A stretch of 32,000 nt of DNA, taken from contig OY759724.1 of NCBI GenBank assembly GCA_963662715.1, forward strand, positions 2,760,001 to 2,792,000, read 5' to 3'. This document shows, piece after piece, positions 4,037 to 32,000 of this stretch (positions within the stretch are counted from its first letter, which is position 1; each line of letters opens with the position of its first letter). Made by a program: the position numbers and the translations under genes. Below the pieces are notes generated by a model that was not told the DNA's origin, ran no database searches, and saw nothing but the letters and a program-made list of their open reading frames with translations. The stretch is from Candidatus Omnitrophota bacterium (GTDB lineage: Bacteria; Omnitrophota; Gorgyraeia; Zapsychrales; JANLHA01).

Positions 4037-4037
4037 A

Positions 4038-10565: not shown

Positions 10566-10594
10566 AAAAAGACAGGAGAGAGACAGAAGAGGAT

Positions 10595-13808: not shown

Positions 13809-13866
13809 GCTGGAGCAGGACAGGATTTAGGCGGAAGGGGCATTAAGGTGTGCCTTGTCCGGGAAT

Positions 13867-14501: not shown

Positions 14502-14544
14502 AAAAGGGAGGACCGGGTTATTTACTCGGTGCCTCCCTTTTTTG
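14501..14544. terminator. bidirectional intrinsic terminator between convergent genes
   Basis: GGGAGGACCG (14506-14515) pairs with CGGT-g-CCTCCC (14527-14537). An A-run lies upstream and a T-run downstream (14538-14543). It sits between the plus-strand lipoprotein gene and the minus-strand ferredoxin gene. Confidence 0.65.
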
Positions 14545-14562
14545 AGAGCTTTTTATTGATCC

Positions 14563-14841
14563 TTATTGATTCGCTAAAGGTTCTTTGTGCTCAGTGATCA
14601 CGGGAAGGTTCGGGGCTTTTTCGGCGTTGAGCTGAATAAAACTCTGCCATTTTTCCGGGACTTCTTCCGCCGGATGGATGGCCTGAACCGGACATTCCGG
14701 CACGCACGCGCCGCAGTCAATGCAAACTTCCGGATCAATGACGACCATTTCTTCGTCCTCCCGAAAACTTTCCACCGGGCAGACTGTGACACATTGAGTG
14801 TATTTGCATTTAATACACGGTTCGCAAACAACATGTGGCAT
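14563..14841 (-). CDS. fdxA: 7Fe-type ([3Fe-4S][4Fe-4S]) ferredoxin, FdxA-like
   Basis: 92 aa. The sequence MPHVVCEPCIKCKYTQCVTVCPVESF...CIDCGACVPECPVQAI...FIQLNAEKA closely parallels Azotobacter-type ferredoxin I. AGGAGG lies upstream of the ATG on the minus strand. Confidence 0.88.
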   Translation of the reverse strand: MPHVVCEPCIKCKYTQCVTVCPVESFREDEEMVVIDPEVCIDCGACVPECPVQAIHPAEEVPEKWQSFIQLNAEKAPNLPVITEHKEPLANQ

Positions 14842-14883
14842 GGGATTACCTCCTGATAAGTAAAAAATAATTAACTTTGCCTA

Positions 14884-14912
14884 AATTTAACAGATTGTCT
14901 TCCGGCTGTCAA
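14884..14912 (-). promoter_or_regulatory. sigma70-type promoter candidate for the ferredoxin gene
   Basis: The minus strand reads TTGACA (complement of 14907-14912), a 17-nt spacer, then TAAATT (complement of 14884-14889). It lies about 40 nt upstream of the fdxA ATG. Confidence 0.4.
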
Positions 14913-14949
14913 ATAAAATTCCCCTTAGATGAGAATGCCTCCGGAGGCT

Positions 14950-16398: not shown

Positions 16399-16545
16399 TG
16401 CTTTTGTGATACTCCCTTGTTTGCAGGGGGGTGAACAAATATAAGATTGTTTGAACACGTTTTGACTACAGAAAGCTTAATTTCATTCATAGTATACTCT
16501 TTTTTTGAAAAAATAAAAGGGACAGGGCAAAATAAGAAATAAGAA

Positions 16546-16611
16546 GTAAGAAGGACCGGGTCCTCATTATGCTTAGAGCTGCAGGAAGTTGAGAGAGAAG
16601 TGTCCCCTGAT
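16546..16611 (+). repeat. 66-nt conserved non-coding element, copy A
   Basis: By my hand count, an ungapped alignment to 18900-18965 gives 53/66 identical positions. Shared blocks are GGACCGGGT-CTCATTAT and GAGAGAAGTGTCCC-TGAT. Copy A lies in the divergent intergenic region upstream of the OMP gene. Confidence 0.6.
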
Positions 16612-16651
16612 GCTGAATACTGCTATTCAGGCTTTCCCTATAATGTGTTTC

Positions 16652-16680
16652 TTGACAAAATAAAATGGGTCGGTTAAAAT
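16652..16680 (+). promoter_or_regulatory. sigma70-type promoter candidate directed toward the OMP/PD40 genes
   Basis: TTGACA (16652-16657), a 17-nt spacer, then TAAAAT (16675-16680). It lies about 345 nt upstream of ATG 17026. Confidence 0.4.
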
Positions 16681-17025
16681 AAAATATCTTTTTCCATCTT
16701 TCCCCGGGAAGCAAGCAGATTTTTGCTGCCCATTTACCCCACATTATTTTTGTTTTTCACATTAAACTTAATTTAAAAATTTTTAAGCCCGGACTTTTTG
16801 TCTTGTTGCGTAAATATTTTATTTATTAGTGGTTGGGCGATTCTGAAAAATATTTTTGTATCCAAGTTTAAGAAAAGTCAGTTTTTGGTCGAGTCTGGCA
16901 ATTGTGCGGATACAGACATTAGATTACAATGATATCAATTGACTGATGCTTGTTAAAATTTTTTGTTAAGAAAAACAGCTAAGGGGCTGGCTATATATTT
17001 TAAATATTAATCTGGAGGAGTGAGT

Positions 17026-17694
17026 ATGCTGAAAATGAATTGTAGAAATATTGGGTCTTTTAATCGATATGTTATTATTTCTTTTACCTTTATTCTAAAT
17101 TTATTATGTTTCCAGCTCCCGGTTCATTCTGCCGACGTTGAAAATCCCTGGCATCTCAGCATGTACGGCGGGGGTGTTTTTCCTACTGACGATACCATTG
17201 AAGAAACATTTACAATCGGCGGCCGTTTTACCTATGAACTGCTGGAAAATCTGGAAGTCGGGGTTGATCTTTCCTGGCAGCAGTATGAAGACAAGTATCT
17301 GGGGCTTACATTAGGTGATGTGAACCATATCCCGGTCTATGCCGTTGTGAAATACAATATTGTCTTTAATCCGGATAATACCAGGTTTGTTCCCTATTTG
17401 TTGGGCGGGATCGGCTTTTCATACTGGAATTATCATGAAGAATTGTCAACCATATCCGCAGATGATGATATCAGTTTTACCGGGAAAATCGGCGGGGGCG
17501 TTGACATGGCTCTGAACGAGCAGACATCTCTGTTCCTGGAGGGCGGTTTTTCGTGGGCAAAGTACGACCTGTCAGGTACAGTCCAGATGATAATCCCTGT
17601 TTCATCAACACCGATTGTTAGAACTGTTAGTGTCTCCAGTTCCACTGATCTCAATACGGCTTTTGCAAAAATCGGGATCAGGATCAATTTTTAA
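17026..17694 (+). CDS. outer-membrane beta-barrel protein (OmpA/OmpW-like small porin-family barrel)
   Basis: ORF-track position 17020 is a GTG. GGAGG (17014-17018) lies 7 nt before ATG 17026. The product has a signal peptide (...QLPVHSADV), alternating hydrophobic beta-strand patterning and the terminal sequence IGIRINF, with the C-terminal Phe typical of OMPs. Confidence 0.75.
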   Translation: MLKMNCRNIGSFNRYVIISFTFILNLLCFQLPVHSADVENPWHLSMYGGGVFPTDDTIEETFTIGGRFTYELLENLEVGVDLSWQQYEDKYLGLTLGDVNHIPVYAVVKYNIVFNPDNTRFVPYLLGGIGFSYWNYHEELSTISADDDISFTGKIGGGVDMALNEQTSLFLEGGFSWAKYDLSGTVQMIIPVSSTPIVRTVSVSSSTDLNTAFAKIGIRINF

Positions 17695-17758
17695 GGATTT
17701 TAAGGGACAGTCCACAACCTCTAATATTAAATTATTTTCAAATGGAAAGGAGCGAGCT

Positions 17759-18898
17759 ATGTCTCGTTTTAGGTTGATTTTGAGCTTGCTGATTTTTTGC
17801 GCGTTTGTCCTTGTTTTCCCTAACTCAGCGCAGAGTTTTTATCCAGGGAGAATAGTTTTCATACATGAGGCGGATTATCATAATTCAGAAAACGAAACCG
17901 AAATCTATACTATGAATATTGACGGTTCAGATGTTCGGGTGCTGACAGATAATGATTTTGCCGATATGGACCCTCTCTGGTCACCTGATGGTCAATATAT
18001 TTCTTTCTATTCTAACCGTACCGGAACAGGTGATGTGTTTGTTATGGATCAGAACGGCGATAATGTGATAAACGTCAGTAATAACCAGGATCATTCCAAC
18101 TACCGTCAAACCTGGTCCCCAGACAGCCAACAGCTTACTTACGTGGAAAACATAGACCCGACTAATATAAATATATGGACCAGCACTTTAGATGGCAGTC
18201 CGTCTCAAAAGATTAACCAGGAACAGGGAAGTTTTTCTTTCCCAAGATGGTCAGGTGCCGGAGACCGCATCGCTTACAGTAAGTATGACAGTGATACCAA
18301 AATTTATATCGCTGACAGTGATGGTTCAAATACTGTTATCTTGTCGGGCGTCAGCACGATGTTTAATTGGTCTCCTTCAGGAGACAGGCTTCTTTATGTG
18401 CAGGATGGCAATTTGTGGACCGTTGATCCTTATGGTTTAGATGCAGAAATGCTTTATGATCCTTCGAATGGGAACGTTTTCTTCTCAGCAAATCCTGTTT
18501 GGTCTTCCGACGGTGAATCCATCGCTTTTGTTGTATCGGAAAGCACGGAAGAGGGGTTCACGCGTGCCCTTTATACCATAGGGGCCGATGGGCAAGGGCT
18601 TAATATGCTTTTTGATATACCACAGTATTCTACCGTAGGCTATCTGAATTGGACGCCTGACGGCCGATATTTAGTTTTTTGTATGTTTAGTGATTCTTAT
18701 CAGATTTACAGCCTGGATTTGTTGACATCCGAATTAACCCAACTAACATTTGACGGAGACAACAGTAAACCTCATCTGCAGATGCTGCTCTCTCAGGATG
18801 ACCCGCCATCTTCGACTGTCCCGGAACCGGCAACTGTTTTGTTGTTTGGCTTTGGAATCTTGGGCGGTTTATGGCGAAAATTAAAGGGACCGAATTAA
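17759..18898 (+). CDS. PD40/TolB-like beta-propeller protein with C-terminal PEP-CTERM sorting signal
   Basis: The frame is that of ORF 17615-18898. GGAAAGGAG precedes ATG 17759, which gives MSRFRLILSLLIFCAFVLVFPNSAQS, a signal peptide. PD40-type repeats recur (WSPDGQYISFYSNRTG, WSPDSQQLTY, WSPSGDRLLY, WSSDGESIAF, WTPDGRYLVF). The C-terminus is VPEPATVLLFGFGILGGLWRKLK, i.e. PEP, a TM helix and a basic tail. Confidence 0.85.
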   Translation: MSRFRLILSLLIFCAFVLVFPNSAQSFYPGRIVFIHEADYHNSENETEIYTMNIDGSDVRVLTDNDFADMDPLWSPDGQYISFYSNRTGTGDVFVMDQNGDNVINVSNNQDHSNYRQTWSPDSQQLTYVENIDPTNINIWTSTLDGSPSQKINQEQGSFSFPRWSGAGDRIAYSKYDSDTKIYIADSDGSNTVILSGVSTMFNWSPSGDRLLYVQDGNLWTVDPYGLDAEMLYDPSNGNVFFSANPVWSSDGESIAFVVSESTEEGFTRALYTIGADGQGLNMLFDIPQYSTVGYLNWTPDGRYLVFCMFSDSYQIYSLDLLTSELTQLTFDGDNSKPHLQMLLSQDDPPSSTVPEPATVLLFGFGILGGLWRKLKGPN

Positions 18899-18899
18899 A

Positions 18900-18965
18900 G
18901 TTAAAGGGACCGGGTTCTCATTATTCCTGGAGCGACAGAGAGTTGTGAGAGAAGTGTCCCTTGAT
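18900..18965 (+). repeat. 66-nt conserved non-coding element, copy B
   Basis: It starts 2 nt after the PD40 gene stop and is 53/66 identical to 16546-16611 in the same orientation. Its first 12 nt (TTAAAGGGACCG, 18901-18912) also duplicate the last codons of the gene (18881-18892). Confidence 0.6.
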
Positions 18966-19126
18966 ATCCGTGTGAATTTGAGTATTGTTGTTTATTCGCA
19001 GCGCCGGAGGTTTAATGCTGTGAACTTTGTGCTTGTGCCCCTTTTTTTTTGAAAATTGACCTGTCTTTTTTTGTATTTTATAAAATTTTTTTTCTTGAAG
19101 TCAAATAAAGATAGTTCGAGGTTAAG

Positions 19127-19456
19127 TTAGCCGATTGTCAATGTTGAAAAATTGATTATACTGATAACGAAGATTGCAAAATGGCTAGAAATCAATTCAG
19201 TGGGATAAATGGGAAATGAAGAGGGCAGCTGAAGGTTTTTTTCTGTCAAGAAGTTGAGTGTCCTTTTAAAAAAATTCAATGGCTTGACAAATTCGCGTTT
19301 AAGAGTTAAATTGAAAATACCCCAATCTCTTTTTCCCACCAAATAATTGGCTGGATTATAGCCATTAACAGTTAATTCCCAAGATAGTATTCTATCGACG
19401 AGGTTACCCCTTGGTGAAAAGGATTTTTTGCCGAAGTCCTTTTTTGTGTATGGCAT
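19127..19456 (-). CDS. doubtful hypothetical ORF in the AT-rich spacer
   Basis: 109-aa ORF with no recognisable motif and no Shine-Dalgarno sequence. It overlaps a good plus-strand promoter candidate. I list it only because a 330-nt open frame is somewhat unexpected in AT-rich DNA. Confidence 0.2.
   Translation of the reverse strand: MPYTKKDFGKKSFSPRGNLVDRILSWELTVNGYNPANYLVGKRDWGIFNLTLKREFVKPLNFFKRTLNFLTEKNLQLPSSFPIYPTELISSHFAIFVISIINFSTLTIG
19284..19312 (+). promoter_or_regulatory. sigma70-type promoter candidate for the giant gene
   Basis: TTGACA (19284-19289), a 17-nt spacer, then TAAATT (19307-19312). It implies a leader of about 270 nt before ATG 19589. Confidence 0.4.
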
Positions 19457-19588
19457 GCTTTGTCTTTGAACATAAACCGGCTGTGGTCAATAAATTTTAT
19501 AAATAGGAAAATTTTTAAATGCCGGGGCATTATTATTTTTTTTCAAAACATTCATTTGATAACCTGCTGATAACTTAAGGGAAAAGCC

Positions 19589-22500
19589 ATGAAACAAATA
19601 TTCCAATCCGTTAGACGAACAATTGAAAAGCATGCCGTCTTTAGTCCTGGATTCTTAACTTTGCGAAAACCGCTTTTTGCCATAATGCTCATCCTGTTAA
19701 GCAGCGTGGCTTGTGTCGGAAATGTATATGGCCAAACTCCCACGGTCAGCACCGATAAGGCAACGTATACTCCGGGTGAATCGATAGTGGTGAGTTTCAC
19801 CAACGCGGCCGGGGACGCGTCCGACTGGATCTCCCTGGCCAATGCCGGGTCGGCGAACAATCAGTATGTTGATCTACTATATACGGACGGCACTTTGAAC
19901 GGGACCGCAGGTATCGTTAACGGCAGCGTCACGTTCCCCAATGGCCTGCCGTCCGGGAATTACGAAGCCCGGCTGTTTTTCTATGATTCCTTCAACCTGG
20001 AGGCGAGCGTGTCGTTCACGGTCGAGCCCGCGGGTGCGATCACGGTCAGCACCGATAAGGCAACGTATACTCCGGGTGAATCGATAGTGGTGAGTTTCAC
20101 CAACGCGGCCGGGGACGCGTCCGACTGGATTTCCCTAGCCAATGCCGGGTCGGCGAACAATCAGTATGTTGATCTACTATATACGGACGGCACTTTGAAC
20201 GGGACCGCAGGTATCGTTAACGGTAGCGTTACGTTCCCCAATGGCCTGCCGTCCGGGAATTACGAAGCCCGACTGTTTTTCTATGATTCCTTCAACCTGG
20301 AGGCGAGCGTGTCGTTCACGGTCGAGCCCGCGGGTGCGATCACGGTCAGCACCGATAAGGCAACGTATACTCCGGGTGAATCGATAGTGGTGAGTTTCAC
20401 CAACGCGGCCGGGGACGCGTCCGACTGGATTTCCCTAGCCAATGCCGGGTCGGCGAACAATCAGTATGTTGATCTACTATATACGGACGGCACTTTGAAC
20501 GGGACCGCAGGTATCGTTAACGGCAGCGTCACGTTCCCCAACGGCCTGCCGTCCGGGAGTTACGAAGCCCGGCTGTTTTTCTATGATTCCTTCAACCTGG
20601 AGGCGAGCGTGTCGTTCACGGTCGAGCCTGCGGGTGCGATCACGGTCAGCACCGATAAGGCAACGTATACTCCGGGTGAATCGATAGTGGTGAGTTTCAC
20701 CAACGCGGCCGGGGACGCGTCCGACTGGATTTCCCTAGCCAATGCCGGGTCGGCGAACAATCAGTATGTTGATCTACTATATACGGACGGCACTTTGAAC
20801 GGGACCGCAGGTATCGTTAACGGCAGCGTCACGTTCCCCAATGGCCTGCCGTCCGGAGATTACGAAGCCCGACTGTTTTTCTATGACTCTTATAATCTGG
20901 AAGCCAGTGCTTCTTTTGATGTGGCAACAGCCCCGGATGCTATAACTGATTTAAGCGCAGTATCAGGAGAAGGAGAGGTAACGCTTAGTTGGACAGAGCC
21001 GCCAGATAACAATTCTGCGATTACGAGTTATGAGGTTGAGTATGGGACGGTGGCGAGTGGATTATTTGATAATACATATACGGATGACGCAACGCCTGGC
21101 GCGACAATTAGTGGTCTTACGAATGGAGTTGCCTATCAGTTCAGGGTATTGGCTATTAATGGAGAGGGGACGAGTCCCGAGTCCAACGTAGTGACAGCAA
21201 CACCAGCAGCTATGACAGGTGTCACCTGGACGGATTTAGTGGGGGTGAGTGCGAACGGGAATACCATCACAAAGACAGCCGGGGGGACGGGATGGAATGC
21301 CGGGGCGGCCTCGGCAGAGACGTTTAACGGCGACGGCGGAGTGGATTTCAGTGTATCGCAGGCTAACGGAGCTGTGATGTGCGGGTTATCAGAGGAGAAT
21401 ACGGATGAAAACTATACAACGATTGATTATGCTTTGTATGCGGATCTGTCGGGGAATGTTCGGGTGTATGAGAACGGAGTGTCCCGCGGGACGTTTGGGG
21501 CTTATGAAATCGGGGACCGGTTACGAGTGGCAAGGACCGGGAGCACGGTGACATATGAGCATAACGGGACAGTGATCTATACGAGCACGGTGTCAAGCAG
21601 CGGACCGCTTGTGGCGGATGCCTCGATCTACACGGCAGATGCTGAAATAGTCGATGCCCAGCTTTTTGGGGTCACAGTGGGTGTGCCCGATACGATAACG
21701 GATCTGGAAGTGAGGAATAACATTGTTGATGTTGAATTGGCGTGGACAGCACCGGGGAATAACGGAGCGGCGATAACAGAATATGAGATCCAGTATGGTA
21801 CGGTGGCAAGCGGATTATTTGAGAATACGTATGTTGATGATGCCAGTGCCGGGGCAACGCTGAGCGGATTAACGCTAGGAGTGGGATATCAGTTCAGGGT
21901 GATAGCGAAGAACAGTTATGGGTCATCAGGGACGTCGAATGTTGCAACCGGGACACCGGTAACGGGGATAGATGTAAGCTGGACGGATTTGGTGGGGGTG
22001 AGTGCGAACGGGAATACCATCACAAAGACGGCCGGGGGTACGGGATGGAATGCCGGAGCGGCCTCGGCAGAGACGTTTAACGGCGACGGCGGGGTGGATT
22101 TCAGTGTATCGCAGGCTAACGGAGCTGTGATGTGCGGGTTATCAGAGGAGAATACGGATGAAAACTATACAACGATTGATTATGCTTTGTATGCGGATCT
22201 GTCGGGGAATGTTCGGGTGTATGAGAACGGAGTGTCCCGCGGGACGTTTGGGACGTATGAAATCGGGGACCGGTTACGAGTGGCAAGGACCGGGAGCACG
22301 GTGACATATGAGCATAACGGGACAGTGATCTATACGAGCACGGTGTCAAGCAGCGGACCGCTTGTGGCGGATGCCTCGATCTACACGGCAGATGCTGAAA
22401 TAGTCGATGCCCAGCTTTTTGGGGTCACAGTGGGTGTGCCCGATACGATAACGGATCTGGAAGTGAGGAATAACATTGTTGATGTTGAATTGGCGTGGAC

Positions 22501-25500
22501 AGCACCGGGGAATAACGGAGCGGCGATAACAGAATATGAGATCCAGTATGGTACGGTGGCAAGCGGATTATTTGAGAATACGTATGTTGATGATGCCAGT
22601 GCCGGGGCAACGCTGAGCGGATTAACGCTAGGAGTGGGATATCAGTTCAGGGTGATAGCGAAGAACAGTTATGGGTCATCAGGGACGTCGAATGTTGCAA
22701 CCGGGACACCGGTAACGGGGATAGATGTAAGCTGGACGGATTTGGTGGGGGTGAGTGCGAACGGGAATACCATCACAAAGACGGCCGGGGGTACGGGATG
22801 GAATGCCGGAGCGGCCTCGGCAGAGACGTTTAACGGCGACGGCGGGGTGGATTTCAGTGTATCGCAGGCTAACGGAGCTGTGATGTGCGGGTTATCAGAG
22901 GAGAATACGGATGAAAACTATACAACGATTGATTATGCTTTGTATGCGGATCTGTCGGGGAATGTTCGGGTGTATGAGAACGGAGTGTCCCTCGGGACGT
23001 TTGGGACGTATGAAATCGGGGACCGGTTACGAGTGGCAAGGACCGGGAGCACGGTGACATACGAGCATAACGGGACAGTGATCTATACGAGCACGGTGTC
23101 AAGCAGCGGACCGCTTGTGGCGGATGCCTCGATCTACACGGCAGATGCTGAAATAGTCGATGCCCAGCTTTTTGGGGTCACAGTGGGTGTGCCCGATACG
23201 ATAACGGATCTGGAAGTGAGGAATAACATTGTTGATGTTGAATTGGCGTGGACAGCACCGGGGAATAACGGAGCGGCGATAACAGAATATGAGATCCAGT
23301 ATGGTACGGTGGCAAGCGGATTATTTGACAATACGTATGTTGATGATGCCAGTGCCGGGGCAACGCTGAGCGGATTAACGGTAGGGGTGGAATATCAGTT
23401 CAGGGTGATAGCGAAGAACAGTTATGGCTCATCAGGGACGTCGAATGTTGCAACCGGGACACCGGTAACGGGGATAGATGTAATCTGGACGGATTTAGTG
23501 GGGGTGAGTGCGAACGGGAATACCATCACAAAGACAGCCGGGGGTACGGGATGGAATGCCGGGGCGGCCTCGGCAGAGACGTTTAACGGCGACGGCGGGG
23601 TGGATTTCAGTGTATCGCAGGCTAACGGAGCTGTGATGTGCGGGTTATCAGAGGAGAATACGGATGAAAACTATACAACGATTGATTATGCTTTGTATGC
23701 CGATCTGTCGGGGAATGTGCGGGTGTATGAGAACGGAGTGTCCCGAGGGACGTTTGGGACGTATGAAATCGGGGACCGGTTACGAGTGGCAAGGACCGGG
23801 AGCACGGTGACATACGAACATAACGGGACAGTGATCTATACGAGCACAGTGTCAAGCAGCGGACCGCTTGTGGCGGATGCTTCGATTTATACAGCAGATG
23901 CTGAAATAGTCGACGCTATGATTATGGGTGTTAGTCAGGCTCCCGAACCTATTACGGATTTAACGGCCATGGCTGAGAACGGGCAAATTTCCTTATTTTG
24001 GACAGCTCCGGAAGATAACGGGTCCCCAATAACAGAATACGAAGTCCGTTACGGGACCGTTAGCGGCGGTGTATTTGATCACACGTACACGGATGATGAT
24101 ACTCCGGGGACTGTAATCACGGGACTCACTAATGACGTAGAGTATATGTTTAGGGTCTTTGCCATAAACAGCGCTGGGTCTTCAGCTGATTCTAATTTCG
24201 TTACAATTTCGCCGATAATAACGTTTCCGGTCAATTGGACGGATTTGGTCGGAGTGAACGCTAACGGAAGCACGATCACAAAAACAGATACATCAGCCTG
24301 GGGAAATGGCGGAGCGGCCTCAACAACAACTTTTGAGGGAGATGGAGGTGTGGAATTCCGGATTTCCCAAACTCCTGTCAATCTTATATGCGGGTTGTCT
24401 GATGAAAATACGGATGCCGATTATACGAGTATTGACTATGCCATCCGTTTAAATGATACGGGAGCGATTGAAGTTTTTGAAAACGGGTTATATGTAGACT
24501 CGTTCGGGAGTTATGAGGCTGCGGATGTTTTTAGAGTCAGGAGAACAGGAAACACAATAACTTATCAAAAGAACGGGACGGTTTTTTACACAAGCACTGT
24601 TTCTAGCTTGGGGCTTTTACTGGCGGATGCCGCCATATATGCGTCTGGAGACGAAATAGCCGATGCCAATATGATAGGTGTAACCCCGGGAGTTCCCGGG
24701 TCGATATATGATCTGTCCGCTGTGGCCGGGGATGAAGAAGTTATGCTTTACTGGACAGCCCCGGTGAACAACGGAGCGGTTATCACGGAATATGAAATTC
24801 AGTACGGAACTGTAGCCAGCGGTCTATTTGACAATACTTATACGGACGACGCCGTTACCGGGGCTACGATAACCGGCCTGACAAATGACACCGAATATCA
24901 ATTTCGTGTTGTTGCTGTCAACAGTTACGGCACGGCCGATCCATGGGGTTTTGTAACATCCACTCCGTATGAGAGCAGTGTGGGCATCCCTGTCACCTGG
25001 CAGAATATGATCGGATGTGAAGCGACGGGTAATGATTTGGAAAAAGTGACTTGGGCAGGATTTGCCACAGCCTCTTCCGTAACGACCTTTTCCGGGGATG
25101 TGAAGGTGGCATTCACGGCTTCCAGTTTTCCCTACGGGATCCAGTTTGGTTTATCCAGTGATCCGGATACTTCTTATACGAACATACATCATAATATCCA
25201 TATCAATAATCCTTCCGGCGTAGATACAATTAACATCCGCGAAAACGGCGTAATTGTTTACTCCGAGACGACATCTGTATCTGCCGGCGATGTTTTTGCC
25301 ATAGAGAGAAGCGGTACGACTGTAACTTATCTCAGAAATGAAACCGTTTTTTATACGAGTACGAGCCCGTCTGCCGGGACTCAATTTATTGACGTTTTTA
25401 TGGATACTTTTGGCGGCCGCCTTGAAGATGCCATGATTTACGGCGTCACGCCTGGCGTGCCTGATCCTGTTACGGATTTAACGGCTGATGCCGATCCGGG

Positions 25501-28500
25501 CGAAGTCGTGCTCGACTGGACAGCCCCGGCGAATAACGGCACAGCGATCATCCAGTACGAAGTGCAGTACGGCACAGTGGCCAGCGGGTTGTTTGATCAT
25601 ACTTATATTGATGATGACAGCCCCGGAACGACGATCAGTGCCCTGACGAACGGCACAGCCTATCAATTCAGGGTCGTGGCCACCAATAGTTCCGGTTCTT
25701 CGGAGGTCTCAAATGCCGTTGTTTCCACTCCTTATGACGGTATGCCTGTCACCTGGCAGAATCTGGTCAACTGCACGGCCACGGGCAGCGATTTGGAGAA
25801 TACCTCGTCTGAGCAAGGCGGCGCTTCATCCGTGACAACTTTTTCCGGGGATGCGAAAGCGGAATATACCGTCTCTGCCAGCCCGGTGGGGATTCACTTC
25901 GGTCTGTCTGACAGTGATCCTGATGTGGATTGGACGAATATTGATTATGATATTTATGTCGGTACGGGACTTACGGTGACTGTTTATGAAAACGGCACGT
26001 CCGTACATGCGGGCCCTGTTGTGAACACCGGCGACGTTCTATCCATTGACAAGACAGGCTCAACCATAACCTATCTGTTGAACGGGACGGTCTTTTATAC
26101 AAGCGCAGAAACGGCAAACGGGACTTTATTAATAGACACTTTCTTGGAGAATAACGGGAATTTGATCGAAGATGCCCGCATGATCGGGCTTGTCACCGGA
26201 GTTCCCGGCACAATAACAGACCTTACCGCTTACAGCGGCCTTGGGGAAGTCACGCTTTACTGGACAGCCCCGGCGAACAACGGTTCTGCGATTTTTGAAT
26301 ATGAAATCCAGTACGGCACGGTCGCCGGCGGATTATTTGATAACACCTATACGGACGACGCAGAAACAGGAGCCATTGTTTCCGGCCTGACAGACGCAAC
26401 GGATTATCAATTCAGAGTGATCGCCAAAAACGGCTATGGAAGTTCGGATGTGTCCAACACGGCCGCAGCCATGCCGAATACAAGTGTAGACATCACCTGG
26501 ACAGATATTGTCGGCGTTACGGTTAACGGTAATACCATTATAAAAAATGCTGCGACTATGGCCTGGGACAGCGGTGCCGCCTCTTTTGAGAAGATCAGCG
26601 CCGATGGGGCCCTTGAGTTTACCGCAACCCAGACAAATACACGGCGTTTATGCGGCTTTTCCAAGGCGAACACCGATGCCGGCGGCAGCAGTATTGATTA
26701 CGGGATTTATCTTTACGATAACGGCTACGCTTATGTCTTTGAGAACGGCGCCAATAAAGCGTCTCTTGGACCGTACGAAAGTGGCGACCGATTTGCCGTG
26801 CGGCGCACCGGCTATCAGATGATTTATAAGAAAAACGGAAACGTTTATTATGCAAACAGCAACACAGCTAACAGCGGAGAACTGCTGGCCGATGCGTCTA
26901 TTTATACCCCTGAAGGGGAGATTACTGAGGCAAAGTTGCTGATCCTCAGCCCCGGTGTCCCTGATGCGGTCGAAGATCTCGTTGCTGTCGGGGAAGACGG
27001 TCAGGTCGCTTTAAGCTGGAACGCTCCGGATGGAAACGGTTCGGCCATTACGGAATATGAAGTGCGGTACGGGACAGTGGCCAGCGGTTTGTTTGACAGT
27101 ACATATTTAGATGATGCCGATCCCGGTGCGGTCATATCAGGATTAACTAATGGTGTAGAATATCAGTTCCAGGTTGTCGCCACCAACGGTGTCGGTACGG
27201 GTGAAGTTTCCAATACCGCGACAGCTATCCCTGTGCAGACCCCGGAAATTGACGTGGTCTGGACAGATTTGGTCGGGGTGTCGGTTGACGGCAACAGCAT
27301 TACCAAGACGGCATCCACAGGCTGGGGGAACGGCGGGGCGGCATCCGAGCAGATCATAACAGGAGACGGCGGGGTGAAATTCACCGCGGCCCAGACAGAT
27401 AAAATCGTGCTCTGCGGCTTATCAGAGACCAATGCCGATGCCAGTATTTTTTCCATTGAATACGCTATGTATCTGCACAGCAGCGGCAATGTTTATGTTT
27501 ACGAGAGCGGTTCTTATATCGACGGCTACGGGTCTTACAGCGTCGGTGATACTTTCTCGGTGGAACGCAGCGGGACCACGGTCGTGTACAAACATAACGG
27601 TACGATTATTTACACCAGCACGGTCCCGGCCGCCGGGTCACTGCTGGTGGATTCGACGATATACACCCAGGGCGGCACGATCAGTGACGCGAAAATCACA
27701 GGGATCGCGGTCGGCCCGCCTGACGCCGTTGATGATTTAATAGCTTCGGCTAAGGATGCTGGAGTAATATTAGACTGGACAGCCCCTTCAGACAACGGTT
27801 ATCCGATCAGCGGATATGAAGTGCAGTACGGCACGGTGGCCGGCGGTTTGTTTGACAATACCTATGTCGATGACGACATCCCGGGCACGGCGATTTCCGG
27901 ATTGACCAACGGAGAGGAATATCAATTCCGGGTGGTGGCCGTGAATTCCCAGGGGACCAGTGATGTTTCAAATGTCGTAATGGCGACCCCTGAGCCCCTG
28001 GTTGTGGTTGACGTCGTCTGGACAGATGCCATTCACGTGGATGTCAACGGTAATACCATTACCAACACCTGGTGGCAGGATGGCTGGGAGAGCGGCGCCG
28101 CGTCCATGACAATATTTGACGGAGACGGGGCCGTTGATTTTACCGTTGCGCAGACCAATGCCCGTCTGGCCTGCGGCTTGTCTGATGCCAATACCGGCAC
28201 CGGGTATACTTCGATCGACTATGCCTTTTATCTTGAGACCAACGGTGACCTGTATATTTATGAAAATGGGGTGAGTCAGGGCGTCTTCGGTACTTATGAT
28301 GTCGGAGACCGGCTTGTCATAGACAGGACATTTTCCACGGTCACTTACTGGAATGACACGACGCTTCTTTACACCAGCACCACCCCCAGCACCGGGCCCC
28401 TTATGGCGGACAGTGCCATTTACACCTCCGGGGGCGTGATTGATGATGCCCGGTTAAGCGGGATATCCTGGAGTCTGCCGGAATCCGTAACAGACCTGGA

Positions 28501-30361
28501 TGCGACTCCTTATTCCGAGGAAGTTGATTTATCCTGGAGCAATACCGAACTTGTGACCGGTTATAAGATCCTGTACGGCACAGCCAGCGGGGTTTATGAT
28601 ACGGAAATCAATGCCGGGGCCGTAACCGATTATACGGTCACCGGTTTAAGTAACGGTACGAAATATTATTTTATCGTCCGGGGCTACAACCATGTCGGAG
28701 ACGGCGCAGACTCCAATGAAATCGACACCATACCTTACCAGAAGACCTATATCAATTCTGATATCACGGAAGATACAACTTGGGACCTGCAGGGCAGCCC
28801 GTATATTATTAACACAAGCATTGCCGTTGATGCCGGCGTGACTTTGACGATCGAACCCGGCGTTGAAGTGAGGTTTGGCGGTTTTTACAGCCTCACCATT
28901 AACGGCACGTTAAACGCGCAGGGCACAGCCGGGCAGAGGGTCCTTTTCACATCGGATGAATCGCCCAAAGAAGCTCAGGATTGGATAGGTATTTATATTT
29001 ACGGTAACGCAAATATATCCTTTGCCCAATTTGAATATTCCCTTCACGGATTGTATATCGATAATGTTTCTCCCTCAATTTATGATAACGTTTTTAAATA
29101 CAACGGCTCAGCGCTTTATCTTGTTAACGGCTGTTCGTCTGATATATCCGGGAACACGATAAGCAATAATCATACGGGTGTTTTTGTGTCCCCTTCATTA
29201 ACGACGCCGCCCAACCCAACGATCAATAATAATGACATTTTTGACAACGTATATGATTTTAAAACAGAAGCTCCGGGGGGATTGGATTATTCTTCCATCA
29301 CGATCAATGCGGAGAATAACTGGTGGGGGACAACAGATCAGGCGGCCATTGAAAATAAAATTATTCATAACCCTGATGATGCTTTGCTCCCGGTCGTGGA
29401 TTACGAGCCTTACGAATCGCAGGCCAGCGGGCCGGGGATATCCAACCCCAATGTCTCAGCTCTGCTGTTTACCCCTGTCTCCGGGGAAACCACGAGTATC
29501 AATTATACCCTTGACCAGGACGCGGATGTTACAATTAAAATATATTTATATGAGACTAAGGAACTCGTCTACACTTTGCTGGATTCTGCGGCCAGAACCG
29601 CCGGCACTCATTCCGAGACCTGGGACGGCCGGAACAATTATAATGAAGTCCTGCCTTATGATGTTTATTATTACACCATCAGTGCTGTCGACAGTTCGGA
29701 TAATTATTCGGAATATGACCCTCAGTATGTTGAAGGGACTGTGGATTTCCTTAATTATTCGGTTGAGCCGGACACGTTTGACCCTTATCAGAACGAAGTT
29801 GTAACGGTCTCTTATGATCTGCTTTCCCCGTCTTGGGTTATTTTGACAGTGAACGCCCCCAGAGAAATCGGTGAAGATGCCTATGAAATTGATGAGCTGG
29901 TGACGTCAAGCCCACAGGACACGACGGGGAATCAGGAGATCTGGGATGGACGCGATGCCGGAGGATTCATTAGGGATGGTGATTTTTATATATTTGGTTG
30001 GGCGACTCTTTTGCCGGATAATGCCATTGCCCTGGAGCCTGATTTCGAAATCACATCTTTGACTACGGGGCCGTACTCTATCTTCCCGATTTACGGGGAT
30101 ATCACGCATATAACGTATGAAATCCCCGCAGATGCGGTGATTACTCTGGAAGTGCTGGATCCTGACGGCGTTTCGGTTCGCACGCTTATAAATGATGCAT
30201 TGACGGAAGCAGGTCATTATACCGGTCTCGTTTGGGACGGCAAAGATGATACCGGACGGGTTGTTTCTCCGGCCGGGAATTATATCGTGAAACTCACAGC
30301 AGTGAATGCCGCGGACGGGGAAACGAGTATCAAGTATGCCAATGTCACAATTTTTGATTAA
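19589..30361 (+). CDS. giant (3,590 aa) secreted multidomain repeat protein: 4x Ig-like, 11x FN3 / 10x unassigned domain, parallel beta-helix, FlgD-Ig-like domains
   Basis: A single uninterrupted 10,773-nt frame. The approximate domain map is:
- Signal peptide: RKPLFAIMLILLSSVACVGNVYG-QT.
- 19742-20930: four 100-aa domains.
- 20930-28741: FN3 domains (TDL...L.WT.P.NNG..I..YE..YGTV...Y.FRV.A.N..G) alternating with a ~155-aa domain.
- 28742-29420: beta-helix repeats (ISGNTISNNHTGVFV, INNNDIFDN, NNWWGT).
- 29420-30358: about three FlgD-Ig-like modules (TWDGRNNYNEVLPYDVYYYTISAVD; VWDGKDDTGRVVSPAGNYIVKLTAVN). Confidence 0.9.
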   Translation: MKQIFQSVRRTIEKHAVFSPGFLTLRKPLFAIMLILLSSVACVGNVYGQTPTVSTDKATYTPGESIVVSFTNAAGDASDWISLANAGSANNQYVDLLYTDGTLNGTAGIVNGSVTFPNGLPSGNYEARLFFYDSFNLEASVSFTVEPAGAITVSTDKATYTPGESIVVSFTNAAGDASDWISLANAGSANNQYVDLLYTDGTLNGTAGIVNGSVTFPNGLPSGNYEARLFFYDSFNLEASVSFTVEPAGAITVSTDKATYTPGESIVVSFTNAAGDASDWISLANAGSANNQYVDLLYTDGTLNGTAGIVNGSVTFPNGLPSGSYEARLFFYDSFNLEASVSFTVEPAGAITVSTDKATYTPGESIVVSFTNAAGDASDWISLANAGSANNQYVDLLYTDGTLNGTAGIVNGSVTFPNGLPSGDYEARLFFYDSYNLEASASFDVATAPDAITDLSAVSGEGEVTLSWTEPPDNNSAITSYEVEYGTVASGLFDNTYTDDATPGATISGLTNGVAYQFRVLAINGEGTSPESNVVTATPAAMTGVTWTDLVGVSANGNTITKTAGGTGWNAGAASAETFNGDGGVDFSVSQANGAVMCGLSEENTDENYTTIDYALYADLSGNVRVYENGVSRGTFGAYEIGDRLRVARTGSTVTYEHNGTVIYTSTVSSSGPLVADASIYTADAEIVDAQLFGVTVGVPDTITDLEVRNNIVDVELAWTAPGNNGAAITEYEIQYGTVASGLFENTYVDDASAGATLSGLTLGVGYQFRVIAKNSYGSSGTSNVATGTPVTGIDVSWTDLVGVSANGNTITKTAGGTGWNAGAASAETFNGDGGVDFSVSQANGAVMCGLSEENTDENYTTIDYALYADLSGNVRVYENGVSRGTFGTYEIGDRLRVARTGSTVTYEHNGTVIYTSTVSSSGPLVADASIYTADAEIVDAQLFGVTVGVPDTITDLEVRNNIVDVELAWTAPGNNGAAITEYEIQYGTVASGLFENTYVDDASAGATLSGLTLGVGYQFRVIAKNSYGSSGTSNVATGTPVTGIDVSWTDLVGVSANGNTITKTAGGTGWNAGAASAETFNGDGGVDFSVSQANGAVMCGLSEENTDENYTTIDYALYADLSGNVRVYENGVSLGTFGTYEIGDRLRVARTGSTVTYEHNGTVIYTSTVSSSGPLVADASIYTADAEIVDAQLFGVTVGVPDTITDLEVRNNIVDVELAWTAPGNNGAAITEYEIQYGTVASGLFDNTYVDDASAGATLSGLTVGVEYQFRVIAKNSYGSSGTSNVATGTPVTGIDVIWTDLVGVSANGNTITKTAGGTGWNAGAASAETFNGDGGVDFSVSQANGAVMCGLSEENTDENYTTIDYALYADLSGNVRVYENGVSRGTFGTYEIGDRLRVARTGSTVTYEHNGTVIYTSTVSSSGPLVADASIYTADAEIVDAMIMGVSQAPEPITDLTAMAENGQISLFWTAPEDNGSPITEYEVRYGTVSGGVFDHTYTDDDTPGTVITGLTNDVEYMFRVFAINSAGSSADSNFVTISPIITFPVNWTDLVGVNANGSTITKTDTSAWGNGGAASTTTFEGDGGVEFRISQTPVNLICGLSDENTDADYTSIDYAIRLNDTGAIEVFENGLYVDSFGSYEAADVFRVRRTGNTITYQKNGTVFYTSTVSSLGLLLADAAIYASGDEIADANMIGVTPGVPGSIYDLSAVAGDEEVMLYWTAPVNNGAVITEYEIQYGTVASGLFDNTYTDDAVTGATITGLTNDTEYQFRVVAVNSYGTADPWGFVTSTPYESSVGIPVTWQNMIGCEATGNDLEKVTWAGFATASSVTTFSGDVKVAFTASSFPYGIQFGLSSDPDTSYTNIHHNIHINNPSGVDTINIRENGVIVYSETTSVSAGDVFAIERSGTTVTYLRNETVFYTSTSPSAGTQFIDVFMDTFGGRLEDAMIYGVTPGVPDPVTDLTADADPGEVVLDWTAPANNGTAIIQYEVQYGTVASGLFDHTYIDDDSPGTTISALTNGTAYQFRVVATNSSGSSEVSNAVVSTPYDGMPVTWQNLVNCTATGSDLENTSSEQGGASSVTTFSGDAKAEYTVSASPVGIHFGLSDSDPDVDWTNIDYDIYVGTGLTVTVYENGTSVHAGPVVNTGDVLSIDKTGSTITYLLNGTVFYTSAETANGTLLIDTFLENNGNLIEDARMIGLVTGVPGTITDLTAYSGLGEVTLYWTAPANNGSAIFEYEIQYGTVAGGLFDNTYTDDAETGAIVSGLTDATDYQFRVIAKNGYGSSDVSNTAAAMPNTSVDITWTDIVGVTVNGNTIIKNAATMAWDSGAASFEKISADGALEFTATQTNTRRLCGFSKANTDAGGSSIDYGIYLYDNGYAYVFENGANKASLGPYESGDRFAVRRTGYQMIYKKNGNVYYANSNTANSGELLADASIYTPEGEITEAKLLILSPGVPDAVEDLVAVGEDGQVALSWNAPDGNGSAITEYEVRYGTVASGLFDSTYLDDADPGAVISGLTNGVEYQFQVVATNGVGTGEVSNTATAIPVQTPEIDVVWTDLVGVSVDGNSITKTASTGWGNGGAASEQIITGDGGVKFTAAQTDKIVLCGLSETNADASIFSIEYAMYLHSSGNVYVYESGSYIDGYGSYSVGDTFSVERSGTTVVYKHNGTIIYTSTVPAAGSLLVDSTIYTQGGTISDAKITGIAVGPPDAVDDLIASAKDAGVILDWTAPSDNGYPISGYEVQYGTVAGGLFDNTYVDDDIPGTAISGLTNGEEYQFRVVAVNSQGTSDVSNVVMATPEPLVVVDVVWTDAIHVDVNGNTITNTWWQDGWESGAASMTIFDGDGAVDFTVAQTNARLACGLSDANTGTGYTSIDYAFYLETNGDLYIYENGVSQGVFGTYDVGDRLVIDRTFSTVTYWNDTTLLYTSTTPSTGPLMADSAIYTSGGVIDDARLSGISWSLPESVTDLDATPYSEEVDLSWSNTELVTGYKILYGTASGVYDTEINAGAVTDYTVTGLSNGTKYYFIVRGYNHVGDGADSNEIDTIPYQKTYINSDITEDTTWDLQGSPYIINTSIAVDAGVTLTIEPGVEVRFGGFYSLTINGTLNAQGTAGQRVLFTSDESPKEAQDWIGIYIYGNANISFAQFEYSLHGLYIDNVSPSIYDNVFKYNGSALYLVNGCSSDISGNTISNNHTGVFVSPSLTTPPNPTINNNDIFDNVYDFKTEAPGGLDYSSITINAENNWWGTTDQAAIENKIIHNPDDALLPVVDYEPYESQASGPGISNPNVSALLFTPVSGETTSINYTLDQDADVTIKIYLYETKELVYTLLDSAARTAGTHSETWDGRNNYNEVLPYDVYYYTISAVDSSDNYSEYDPQYVEGTVDFLNYSVEPDTFDPYQNEVVTVSYDLLSPSWVILTVNAPREIGEDAYEIDELVTSSPQDTTGNQEIWDGRDAGGFIRDGDFYIFGWATLLPDNAIALEPDFEITSLTTGPYSIFPIYGDITHITYEIPADAVITLEVLDPDGVSVRTLINDALTEAGHYTGLVWDGKDDTGRVVSPAGNYIVKLTAVNAADGETSIKYANVTIFD
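19741..20930 (+). repeat. in-frame tandem repeat, 300-bp unit x 4 (near-identical)
   Basis: CACGGTCAGCACCGATAAGG recurs at exactly 19741, 20041, 20341 and 20641. The units differ by only a handful of mostly synonymous substitutions. The fourth unit diverges in its last ~50 nt. Confidence 0.95.
21228..23915 (+). repeat. in-frame tandem repeat, 753-bp unit x ~3.6 (near-identical), continuing as diverged ~750-760-bp modules to ~28741
   Basis: GTGGGGGTGAGTGCGAACGGG starts at 21239, 21992, 22745 and 23498, a spacing of exactly 753. The encoded units differ at only a few residues (A/T, R/L, E/D, L/V, G/E, S/I). Confidence 0.95.
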
Positions 30362-30375
30362 AGAAAGATGAAAAT

Positions 30376-31260
30376 ATGCTGCAAAGGACTTTAGTTTTTC
30401 TGCTCATAACTTTTTTCTTGAGCCATAGTCCGCTTTGGGCTGAGGTTAAAGAACTGATTGCTTATTCAAGTCTCACGGATGGCTACTGGCAGATATGGAC
30501 CATGGCCCCGGACGGAAGTCATAAACAGCAGGTGACGCGGTCTTTGTCTGATAAAAGGGACCCGGCATGGATGAACAACGGTCAGGCTTTGGTGTGCCGA
30601 ACGAATAATGGCGAACTTTGGACTGTTGACCTTGCGACAAAAGAGGAAAAACAGGTCCTCACAAGATACACCATGATCCGTAATCCGCATTACTGCGATG
30701 CCAGCCAGGAGATCGTTTTTGTCCGTTTTGACCCGCGGTCCCAGGGGGCGGGCTTTATATGGAAAACAGATTTGAAAGACAGCTACCCGGAGGTCCTAAC
30801 CCGGGAAAGCATTCTGAAATATCAGCCGGTTTTTTCCTGGCAGTGCGACAAGATTGCCTTTGTCAAAGCTGATCAGGAATTAAAGAATCATCATGTATGG
30901 CTCATGGACGCTGACGGCAAGAATCAGGAACAGTTGACAAAAGAAACAGGGCTGTTTACGCTCCCGGCGTTTTCTCCGGATCAGAAAAGCCTTGTTTTGA
31001 CCTCAAACTGTCAGGATGATAATTATGAAATTTATGTTCTGGATCTGGCAAGCCGGGAAACGAAGCGGATCACCAGCGATCCGGGGCTGGATACCCATGC
31101 CCGTTTTTCCCCGGACGGGAAAAATATTGTCTTTGTTTCCAACCGCAGCGGGAGTCAGCAGATCTGGACCATGGACCGGGAAGGCCGTAATCTGCAACAG
31201 CTCACCCGCGGCCCGGAGGAATGTGTCACTCCGGATTGGGGAAGGGCCGGGGAGGATTAG
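30376..31260 (+). CDS. TolB-like periplasmic PD40 beta-propeller protein
   Basis: 294 aa. It has a signal peptide (FLLITFFLSHSPLWAEV) and PD40 motifs (FSPDQKSLVLTSN, ARFSPDGKNIVFVSNRSGSQQIWTMDREGRNLQQLT). It starts 14 nt after the giant gene stop. Confidence 0.85.
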   Translation: MLQRTLVFLLITFFLSHSPLWAEVKELIAYSSLTDGYWQIWTMAPDGSHKQQVTRSLSDKRDPAWMNNGQALVCRTNNGELWTVDLATKEEKQVLTRYTMIRNPHYCDASQEIVFVRFDPRSQGAGFIWKTDLKDSYPEVLTRESILKYQPVFSWQCDKIAFVKADQELKNHHVWLMDADGKNQEQLTKETGLFTLPAFSPDQKSLVLTSNCQDDNYEIYVLDLASRETKRITSDPGLDTHARFSPDGKNIVFVSNRSGSQQIWTMDREGRNLQQLTRGPEECVTPDWGRAGED

Positions 31261-31297
31261 ACATTGTTTATATTAATTCATACATGAGGGTTATATT

Positions 31298-31678
31298 ATG
31301 AAAAATTTATCTCTATCCGTATTCATGCTTTTATTTTGTGCCTTGTCAGCAAACGTTTTATACGCCCAGTCCGTTATTCCGGTCACACTCAATCTTGTTC
31401 AGGAAGAACCGGATAAAAAAGGGACGGATATAACGAATATCTATACGGTAGAAATTCAGGCTGATCAGCCGGCAGACGTTGAAGGCAGGACATTTGAAAT
31501 CGTTTATTTCCTGGATGATATTGTTATTCAAAGATTTGATCAGCAGACATTGCCGTTTTCGTTCAAAAGAAATTACAAAGGGAAGAAACCGGGTGCGCAT
31601 AAGATACGTGTTGAGCTCCTTGATGAAAACGGCAATAAAGTCGCCCAGAAGAGTGTAACCGTAAATGTGGTCTATTAA
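31298..31678 (+). CDS. small secreted protein, probable Ig-like beta-sandwich
   Basis: 126 aa. It has a signal peptide (LLFCALSANVLYAQS) and a beta-rich pattern ending GAHKIRVELLDENGNKVAQKSVTVNVVY. GAGGG lies upstream. The gap from the preceding gene is 37 nt. Confidence 0.65.
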   Translation: MKNLSLSVFMLLFCALSANVLYAQSVIPVTLNLVQEEPDKKGTDITNIYTVEIQADQPADVEGRTFEIVYFLDDIVIQRFDQQTLPFSFKRNYKGKKPGAHKIRVELLDENGNKVAQKSVTVNVVY

Positions 31679-31696
31679 TAACCGGAACCTTTAATA

Positions 31697-32000
31697 ATGA
31701 GTTACTTGGTCAATATCATATTTCTTGTGTTTATCCTGTCCGGCTGTCAGACCGTGACGGCCCCGCCGGCAAGTGGGCCTGTTACATCTGGGGTGTCTCC
31801 CTCCGAAACAAAGCCTTTTTATGAAGGAGAAGTTAAAGTCTCCGATACCTCTTTTGCCCAGGCAACCGGTAAGATTGTTTACACCCTGGCCGAACCCGCT
31901 TTGGTCCGTATCCGCATAGGCCAGGAGAACGGGGCTTTGTTAAGGACTTTCCTGGATTGGGAAGAACAGGAAAAGGGGGAGCATGTTCTGGCCTGGGACA
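31697..32000 (+). CDS. lipoprotein with FlgD-Ig-like domain (partial; runs off the window end)
   Basis: My own translation from ATG 31697 gives MSYLVNIIFLVFILSGCQTVTAPP..., with the lipobox LSGC. It continues ...KIVYTLAEPALVRIRIGQENGALLRTFLDWEEQEKGEHVLAWD with no stop up to 32000. The V.I.I......L......G.H...WD pattern matches FlgD-Ig-like modules. It is not in the ORF track because the frame is open-ended. Confidence 0.6.
   Translation, partial: MSYLVNIIFLVFILSGCQTVTAPPASGPVTSGVSPSETKPFYEGEVKVSDTSFAQATGKIVYTLAEPALVRIRIGQENGALLRTFLDWEEQEKGEHVLAWD

Follow-up and report, generated by a model that had tools for sequence, protein, structure and literature searches.

Genes for a giant secreted FN3 protein and three envelope proteins in Omnitrophota as the candidate front of a conserved Sec-dependent Rhs toxin cassette

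Rhs toxins equipped with a signal peptide occur commonly in diderms that have no type VI secretion system (T6SS); Rhs polymorphic toxin loci are already known as a kind. The Sec- or type II secretion system (T2SS)-dependent class of polymorphic toxins is characterized by a signal peptide and by the lack of signature genes alongside (Zhang et al. 2012, PMC3482391). For the uncultured phylum Omnitrophota, a predatory or parasitic lifestyle is suspected (PMC10066038). Its members harbour giant genes, longer than 25 kb, with T2SS- or type IV pilus (T4P)-like loci at their flanks (bioRxiv 10.1101/2023.11.21.568195; 10.64898/2026.06.07.730766), and these two papers make no mention of Rhs-linked FN3 proteins, TolB or FlgD. 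Here we analyze a 32,000-nucleotide stretch of a Candidatus Omnitrophota genome (assembly GCA_963662715.1, contig OY759724.1, positions 2,760,001 to 2,792,000; hereafter the window), in which a gene for a giant secreted protein (gene 1) is followed by genes for a PD40 beta-propeller, a small secreted protein and a lipoprotein (genes 2 to 4). Comparison with the loci of relatives suggests, with a probability that we put at roughly 55%, that genes 1 to 4 are the front of a conserved Rhs cassette of five to six genes, with the giant protein acting as the cell-binding arm of toxin delivery. That the cassette is a functional unit in the family we consider very likely. No description of such a cassette was found in the literature searched on Omnitrophota Rhs, FlgD_ig, DUF6531 and Sec-type Rhs in diderms and, to our knowledge, a four-gene accessory set for a Sec-signal Rhs with a modular, phage-like adhesin arm is undescribed.

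According to the list of open reading frames (ORFs), gene 1 occupies 19589-30361 on the plus strand and encodes 3,590 amino acids (aa), followed on the same strand by gene 2 (30376-31260, 294 aa), gene 3 (31298-31678, 126 aa) and gene 4, which starts at 31697 and is cut by the window end at 32000. The intergenic gaps are 14, 37 and 18 nucleotides (nt), and no terminator-like site is present within these three short gaps. The layout is as stated in an initial annotation made from the letters of this DNA, which had also proposed a single compact unit and had found the accessory trio to match no described set; both points stand. The entire gene 4 product was recovered as a database protein (P0125, 250 aa), residues 1-101 of which match the window translation exactly. 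By eye, the N-termini of all four products are Sec-like, that of gene 4 being a lipoprotein signal (LSG|C); these assignments were made by inspection of the translations only, and comparable N-termini recur in the orthologues.

The gene order is kept in related genomes, as the initial annotation had asked, and it continues beyond the window. For genes 2 and 4, the closest matches come from metagenome-assembled genomes (MAGs) of Candidatus Omnitrophota, together with one Planctomycetales and one Planctomycetota record; with the synteny, these matches point to a PVC/Omnitrophota lineage. Searching all retrieved loci of relatives (numbered with the prefix L) by tblastn with the window proteins recovered the succession of tail protein, PD40 propeller, small protein, lipoprotein and Rhs in L001 (equivalent to L002 and L009), L003 (equivalent to L004), L008, L012, L013, L005 (equivalent to L006 and L010) and L011. 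The same order, reached starting from the Rhs side, is present in L016/L017 and L018/L019. Three further loci, L020, L021 and L022, were sampled from the profile search for the gene 4 family, L020 and L021 by way of distant members; all have PD40 upstream, Rhs lies downstream in L020 and L021, and the DNA of L022 stops before the fifth gene. Wherever a lineage has both a gene 4 homologue and DNA beyond it, Rhs comes next, and 10 independent lineages among MAGs of Omnitrophota and the Planctomycetota-Verrucomicrobiota-Chlamydiota (PVC) group carry it, at cassette identities down to about 25-40%. The junctions are tight overall, with gaps of 0 to a few nt or overlaps of 1, 4 or 8 nt and often overlapping stop and start codons. 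Giant and PD40 genes are separated by 0 nt in L011, overlaps of 8 nt join lipoprotein and Rhs in L001 and L003 as well as PD40 and small protein in L016, and overlaps of 1-4 nt occur in L018 and L020.

In the relatives, gene 5 encodes a signal peptide, a Gly/Pro-rich linker and DUF6531 with RHS_repeat (E 1e-50 to 1e-72), and precomputed Pfam annotations of these genes include TEN_YD-shell. The C-terminal tips after the ...RYY.P..GRF...DP.G motif differ in every lineage and have no match in Pfam, and on contigs that extend far enough the Rhs gene is followed by a small ORF (110-231 aa). No T6SS, Tc-A or type V secretion system (T5SS) genes are present in the flanks examined. Elsewhere, a related FlgD_ig domain immediately precedes the Rhs DUF6531 as a fusion within one protein (P0223, P0246, from other lineages), and the tail of gene 1 aligns with the N-terminal FlgD_ig domain of P0246 in hhalign at E 4.8e-5. 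The Rhs gene was read in relatives only, the window ending within gene 4; we nevertheless expect, with good confidence, that an Rhs gene or a remnant of one follows gene 4 in the source genome too.

The initial annotation had seen in genes 1 to 4 a candidate for an undescribed surface-display or attachment system. Compactness and the want of a known sorting signal hold; however, the stand-alone display reading is incomplete because the window cuts the unit, and, with Rhs next in all relatives that have downstream DNA, the four genes are better read as the accessory or adhesin part of an Rhs polymorphic-toxin cassette. The corresponding alternative, that the giant is a stand-alone surface adhesin or surface-layer protein with genes 2 to 4 as its anchoring or assembly factors and Rhs merely as a frequent neighbour, would have the lipoprotein and the TolB-like propeller hold the FlgD_ig tail at the outer membrane. 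Such an arrangement fits the homologous domain shared by tail and lipoprotein (below), the adhesin-typical composition and domain content of the giant protein and the absence of known sorting signals already pointed out initially, and it gains from Rhs having been seen in relatives only and in truncated form in L013. Yet we judge it unlikely, as Rhs lies directly downstream in all 10 readable lineages, across cassettes as diverged as 25-40% identity and often with overlapping stop and start codons, as FlgD_ig is fused directly to Rhs elsewhere, and as the head of gene 1 is fully swappable while the accessory genes and Rhs stay.

The latter becomes apparent when gene 1 is compared between cassettes, since only its triple FlgD_ig tail is conserved. 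In the window, this tail comprises three FlgD-type Ig domains at residues 3285-3590 (29441..30361, plus strand) and ends ...ANVTIFD*, and across the relatives it closes with ...N[VI]T[VI]F-x. Its identity to the gene 1 tails of L001, L003, L005, L008, L011, L013, L016 and L020 is 33-57%. The heads, on the other hand, are built differently. That of the window consists of four immunoglobulin (Ig)-like repeats, ten units of FN3 plus a 154-aa domain, here called domain X, and a beta-helix. L001 and L003 have fewer FN3/domain X units and a beta-helix, L005 has three units and PPC-like domains, and L011 has about four units, whereas L016 has about five beta-helix blocks with Ig domains, without FN3 or domain X. 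An apparent minimal cassette in L018, with a gene 1 of 91 aa, was rejected, the gene being interrupted by a run of N in the assembly. Judged from these comparisons, the head of gene 1 is exchangeable and the tail belongs to the conserved system. The claim that the giant protein heads the operon consequently holds for the gene order, but only the 300-aa FlgD_ig tail is part of the conserved system, the head being interchangeable.

The tail is recognized by FlgD_ig with E values of 2.6e-7 and 2.3e-6, and a tail profile run against the Protein Data Bank (PDB) finds FlgD Ig domains exclusively. FlgD models themselves cover only the Ig-like part of gene 1, with 20-33 bits against cut-offs of 230-383, and there are no flagellar genes in the window. 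A domain of the same type opens the lipoprotein. Gene 4 (31697..32000, plus strand, for the first 101 of its 250 residues; lipobox LSG|C) is composed of a FlgD-type Ig domain at its N-terminus and, C-terminally, a domain specific to the family. The FlgD_ig Pfam match is weak on its own, and hhalign pairs the N-domain with the gene 1 tail at E 1.9e-6 and a probability of 90%. By this profile comparison, the gene 1 tail and the lipoprotein N-domain are homologous. The AlphaFold2 model of gene 4 has a mean predicted local distance difference test score (pLDDT) of 51 and is confident for residues about 45-130 only, that is the FlgD-like N-domain; Foldseek returned no significant match for it, and the only high-probability local matches (at most 0.97, E about 0.1) are FlgD hook-cap proteins. 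Scoring the lipoprotein profile against 1.84 billion representatives yielded a family of 1,126 clusters (formed at 50% identity) when E<=1e-3 is required; at E<=1e-10 there are 502 and at E<=1e-30 still 44, and nearly all of the best 150 matches span the family-specific C-domain or the entire protein. The commoner form of gene 4, of about 370 aa, has an extra N-terminal FlgD_ig domain in place of gene 3.

Gene 3 (31298..31678, plus strand) encodes a 126-aa secreted, beta-rich protein that matches no family above threshold in Pfam, NCBIfam or PHROG; its position is conserved in relatives, with homologues of 26-45% identity. The profile comparison with the C-domain of gene 4 suggests that its fold is probably Ig-like and related to that domain. 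Gene 2 (30376..31260, plus strand) is a secreted PD40 beta-propeller (PD40 E 2e-18), with orthologues of 36-62% identity at the same position in all relatives. Its best NCBIfam match is the TolB propeller TIGR02800, at 154 bits against a cut-off of 343 bits; the protein is propeller only, without the TolB N-terminal domain, and the tolQRA and pal genes are absent nearby, which sets it apart from TolB proper. In L020 the propeller (619-1506) has a lipobox, ILSG|C, and the window copy has an ordinary signal peptide, hinting that lipidation of the base may shift between components. An argument for a propeller fused to Rhs, drawn from Beta-prop_THOC3/EML hits, was discarded, considering that these hits lie inside the RHS repeats and far below cut-off.

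Combining the order of variable-head/FlgD_ig-tail protein, PD40 propeller, small Ig-like protein, FlgD_ig lipoprotein, Sec-signal Rhs and small presumed immunity ORF, the cassette could operate as follows. After Sec export, lipoprotein, small Ig protein and propeller would form a scaffold tethered to the outer membrane. This scaffold would dock the FlgD_ig tail of the giant protein and hold or export the Rhs cocoon, and the head of the giant would serve as an exchangeable arm, binding cells or glycans, through which the toxin reaches its target cell, for competition or predation. This specific docking and delivery mechanism is tentative. A more far-reaching proposal is that genes 1 to 4 represent an unrecognized Sec-dependent, outer-membrane-anchored Rhs delivery apparatus of PVC bacteria, amounting to a new trafficking mode of polymorphic toxins in addition to T5SS, T6SS, T7SS and Tc. 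The FlgD_ig lipoprotein, Ig protein and PD40 propeller would then be a base presenting the Rhs cocoon together with a phage-like receptor-binding arm, the exchangeable arm would set target specificity, and Omnitrophota might use the device against host or prey cells. We regard this as possible but doubtful.

Several observations weigh against the cassette reading. The small ORFs after Rhs, presumed to confer immunity, have no family match, and the Rhs of L013 is truncated at 967 aa, so that decay occurs. A PD40 homologue is also found outside the cassette, in L007, and the relation between gene 3 and the C-domain of gene 4 is weak (hhalign E 1.3e-4, probability 54%). A homology search seeded with a relative's Rhs placed no protein of the source contig among its best 120 matches; the same list also omits the known Rhs of L005 and L011, making it weak evidence. 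Finally, all functional statements rest on comparative genomics, and interaction, surface exposure and outer-membrane crossing are inferred only.

How the giant protein is exported bears on the remaining alternatives. The nearby outer-membrane protein (OMP) barrel (17020-17694), from which the initial annotation had judged the organism to be diderm, and the PEP-CTERM signal that it had seen on a neighbour (17615-18898) are both real, and the reported lack of conventional sorting signals on the giant itself was borne out by motif and family searches. A regular-expression search found no LPxTG in gene 1. The repeats-in-toxin (RTX) motif GGxGxD is likewise missing from gene 1, and no ABC transporter, membrane fusion protein (MFP) or TolC genes of a type I secretion system are present in the window. 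PEP-CTERM (PF07589/TIGR02595) has no match in gene 1, the C-terminus of which, ...ANVTIFD, is without a hydrophobic helix, and neither Pfam nor NCBIfam identified a T5SS barrel, a TpsB partner or a two-partner secretion (TPS) domain, be it in gene 1 or in the genes around it. Families of the type I secretion system have no match in gene 1 either, and for PEP-CTERM, type I and T5SS models this also holds on the last 101 aa at E<=10. There is also no TcA-related match in gene 1 in these two collections, and the SpvB and TcdB_midN domains are absent from the cassette Rhs proteins of the relatives.

A further possibility is that the giant and Rhs are ordinary Sec/T2SS substrates released to the medium, as has been put forward for other Omnitrophota giants, with genes 2 to 4 as periplasmic housekeeping proteins or chaperones and with the beta-helix and ConA-like domains binding or degrading polysaccharide. 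Signal-peptide Rhs toxins have indeed been classed as T2SS/Sec-dependent and without signature neighbours (Zhang et al. 2012, PMC3482391), T2SS/T4P-like loci border the Omnitrophota giant genes exceeding 25 kb (10.1101/2023.11.21.568195; 10.64898/2026.06.07.730766), and beta-helix and carbohydrate-binding module (CBM)-like folds suit carbohydrate-active proteins. However, no T2SS or pilus genes are found in the window or within 10 kb in the relatives, and gene 1 matches no catalytic family in Pfam or NCBIfam. A generic pathway furthermore leaves the conserved tail and the dedicated accessory genes unexplained, and the lipoprotein family is confined to this context in all sampled cases. Taken together, we find release through a T2SS quite improbable.

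Lastly, the C-terminal FlgD_ig domains could represent a divergent, type B-like sorting domain of the type IX secretion system (T9SS), served by a T9SS-like machine from another part of the genome. The relatives are PVC-group bacteria, however, and the T9SS is not known outside the Fibrobacterota-Chlorobiota-Bacteroidota (FCB) group. In favour of such a domain, CDD places type B C-terminal domains (CTDs) in the FlgD_ig superfamily (PMC11611037), the terminal domain of the tail has a sub-threshold match to the PorU C-terminal region (NF033707, E 6e-4), and TIGR04131 (E 0.059, 13.5 against 35 bits) and CHU_C (E 0.013, 16 against 27 bits) match the first tail domain. The latter two, type B-like scores are below cut-off and on the first rather than the terminal domain, TIGR04183 and Por_Secre_tail (searched with NCBIfam and Pfam) give no match on the last 101 aa at E<=10, and the tail profile finds only FlgD in the PDB. 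The C-terminal domain is therefore not a canonical T9SS signal, the outcome on which the initial annotation had made its novelty claim depend, and we hold a T9SS-like route to be very improbable. No PorK/L/M/N, SprA, PorV or PorU genes are encoded in the 32 kb.

Returning to the putative binding arm, the head of gene 1 in the window is a mosaic of repeats. A probable Sec signal peptide (residues 1-48, 19589..19732, plus strand, as are all gene 1 features) with a long n-region, a hydrophobic core and VYG|Q comes first. Four nearly identical 100-aa Ig-like repeats follow (residues 49-448, 19733..20932), encoded by a tandem DNA repeat of which 3.8-4 copies are present (300-bp unit, 98% identity); their similarity to MG2 (E 6e-4) stays under the cut-off. 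Next are the ten units of FN3 and domain X (residues about 449-2960, 20933..28468) with a period of about 251 aa, units 2-4 of which are near-identical, and an eleventh FN3 (residues 2961-3055, 28469..28753); in all, fn3 matches 11 stretches of gene 1 (E 6e-120). A right-handed parallel beta-helix (residues 3056-3284, 28754..29440) leads over to the tail, recognized by Beta_helix PF13229 (E 3.7e-8) and NosD PF05048 (E 1.8e-6), as well as by TIGR04247 at E 9.5e-6, under its cut-off.

Domain X, of 154 aa, has no Pfam family match. A model generated from the window's own diverged copies reached a pLDDT of 92, and Foldseek against the PDB retrieved SPRY/B30.2, CBM66 and LamG folds with template-modelling (TM) scores of 0.6-0.73; the predicted fold is a SPRY/ConA-like jelly-roll. 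In sequence, domain X matches a phage virion structural protein in the PDB (26gp_Q, E 3e-9) as well as PHROG 19691 (E 7e-14) and PHROG 26502 (E 5.5e-12), and a Cellulophaga phage phi13:1 protein in BFVD is structurally similar with a TM score of 0.84 at 24% identity. The fold is common to many phage minor-tail and fibre proteins. These matches indicate homology of domain X with structural proteins of phage virions. Separately, an Omnitrophota Rhs of 1,759 aa (P0199) has four jelly-roll domains of DUF1080/Laminin_G_3 type after its N-terminal plug, i.e. binding domains in cis; a relation of domain X to these LamG/DUF1080 inserts was considered and dropped, as hhalign gave no signal (E 0.76).

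At the DNA level, the 300-bp repeat is present four times at window positions 19741-20940 (98/98/89% identity), and four 753-bp units of FN3 and domain X at about 20987-23999 are 92-100% identical over the compared stretch. The GC skew is about 0.3 over 21-24 kb. The gene 1 repeats may, on these grounds, have undergone recent expansion or gene conversion. Gene 1 homologues also break assemblies: in L001 and L003 they lie at contig ends, and L018 is interrupted by N letters at about 7620-7720, consistent with near-identical internal repeats. In the 90% identity cluster that contains the giant protein (window 19589-30358; P0127-P0130), the representative is an unrelated Cys-rich peptide of 50 aa; the three 50-aa proteins clustered with the giant were accordingly set aside as unrelated, the product of a clustering artefact.

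Gene 1 is preceded by a non-coding, AT-rich region with about 41% GC (18899..19588, plus strand), the presumed promoter region or leader of the cassette. It contains no supported ORF, a 109-aa minus-strand ORF at 19127-19456 being without Pfam match, and two sigma-70-like sites at 19135-19162 and 19284-19312 that each agree at 10 of 12 positions, a match at consensus level only. Rfam and tRNA scans of the window gave no matches. Further upstream, and following a radical SAM gene, lie the OMP_b-brl protein (17020-17694) and the PD40 protein with PEP-CTERM (17615-18898; PEP-CTERM match E 3e-6), which are found at this place in the window only and are absent there in relatives. The true start of the latter protein is probably the methionine near 17759, and it shares only about 25% identity with the cassette propeller.

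Before these is a block with an extracytoplasmic function (ECF) sigma factor and an anti-sigma protein (zf-HC2, VWA and YfbK_C domains) within 10595-13808, a 130-aa ORF (14109-14501), a ferredoxin (14563-14841, minus strand) and a B12-binding radical SAM enzyme (14950-16458, minus strand). The set from sigma/anti-sigma to radical SAM is also upstream of the cassette in L001, L003 and L004, and is absent upstream in L005, L011, L016 and L018; it may constitute a regulatory or co-functional neighbourhood in the L001/L003/L004 clade. The start of the window is occupied by an Rnf operon (377-5777; an RseC-like gene and RnfB, C, D, G, E and A). In L013 an Rnf operon (10038-14983) directly follows the truncated Rhs, the same two loci being neighbours there in an arrangement that differs from the window. 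In L016, a second toxin locus is located about 2 kb past the cassette (15953-23014), with a Big_7 Ig protein followed by a 2,122-aa protein with SpvB, TcdB_toxin_midN and RHS that resembles a TcB-TcC fusion.

The cassette bears on how signal-peptide Rhs toxins reach the surface and find their target, for which it offers four candidate accessory genes, and it proposes a testable architecture of conserved docking tail, exchangeable binding head and lipoprotein/propeller base. It is a large-protein system linked to a toxin, distinct from the Omnitrophota giants above 25 kb with T2SS/T4P-like loci next to them. Genes 3 and 4 as well as the gene 1 tail currently have no family assignment in annotation, and the cassette, widespread and unannotated, is relevant both to Rhs toxins outside the T6SS and to the lifestyles of Omnitrophota.

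Among known systems, the Sec-dependent Rhs/WapA toxins resemble the cassette in several respects: the relatives' Rhs has a signal peptide, DUF6531, a variable tip after DPxG and a small ORF downstream, T6SS genes are absent from the vicinity and, as for WapA, retention at the surface is expected. Different from this class, four conserved genes precede Rhs here. Moreover, WapA of Bacillus and Streptococcus is anchored to the Gram-positive wall by its own N-terminal domains, whereas the present organisms are diderm and any anchoring would take place in trans, via the lipoprotein. The Tc (ABC) toxins likewise combine a very large, Ig-rich receptor-binding component with an Rhs cocoon and a cocoon-associated beta-propeller. 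Gene 1 is however all of beta type (Ig-like, FN3, jelly-roll and beta-helix), with no region for a helical pore, the propeller is encoded as a PD40 protein of its own and not within TcB, and all cassette components have Sec signals.

Teneurins and bacterial teneurin-like proteins unite a YD shell, a six-bladed-type beta-propeller and Ig/FN-like domains, but there these are domains of one polypeptide and here separate products, and the propeller is PD40 rather than NHL, in a comparison made without structures. TolB-Pal also pairs a periplasmic PD40 propeller with an outer-membrane lipoprotein; in the cassette the lipoprotein is Ig-like instead of OmpA-like, and the propeller is without the TolB N-terminal domain. 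T9SS cargo proteins, too, are secreted, large and made of many domains, the last of which is an Ig-like beta-sandwich belonging to the FlgD_ig superfamily, whereas the tail described here is a conserved triple domain with dedicated neighbour genes, in a lineage of PVC rather than FCB bacteria. With phage receptor-binding and virion proteins, finally, the link is the homology of domain X in sequence and structure. No phage genes are present here, and domain X occurs tenfold, alternating with FN3, in a cellular secreted protein; as in phage fibres, the docking end of gene 1 would nonetheless be the conserved one and the binding end the one that is exchanged.

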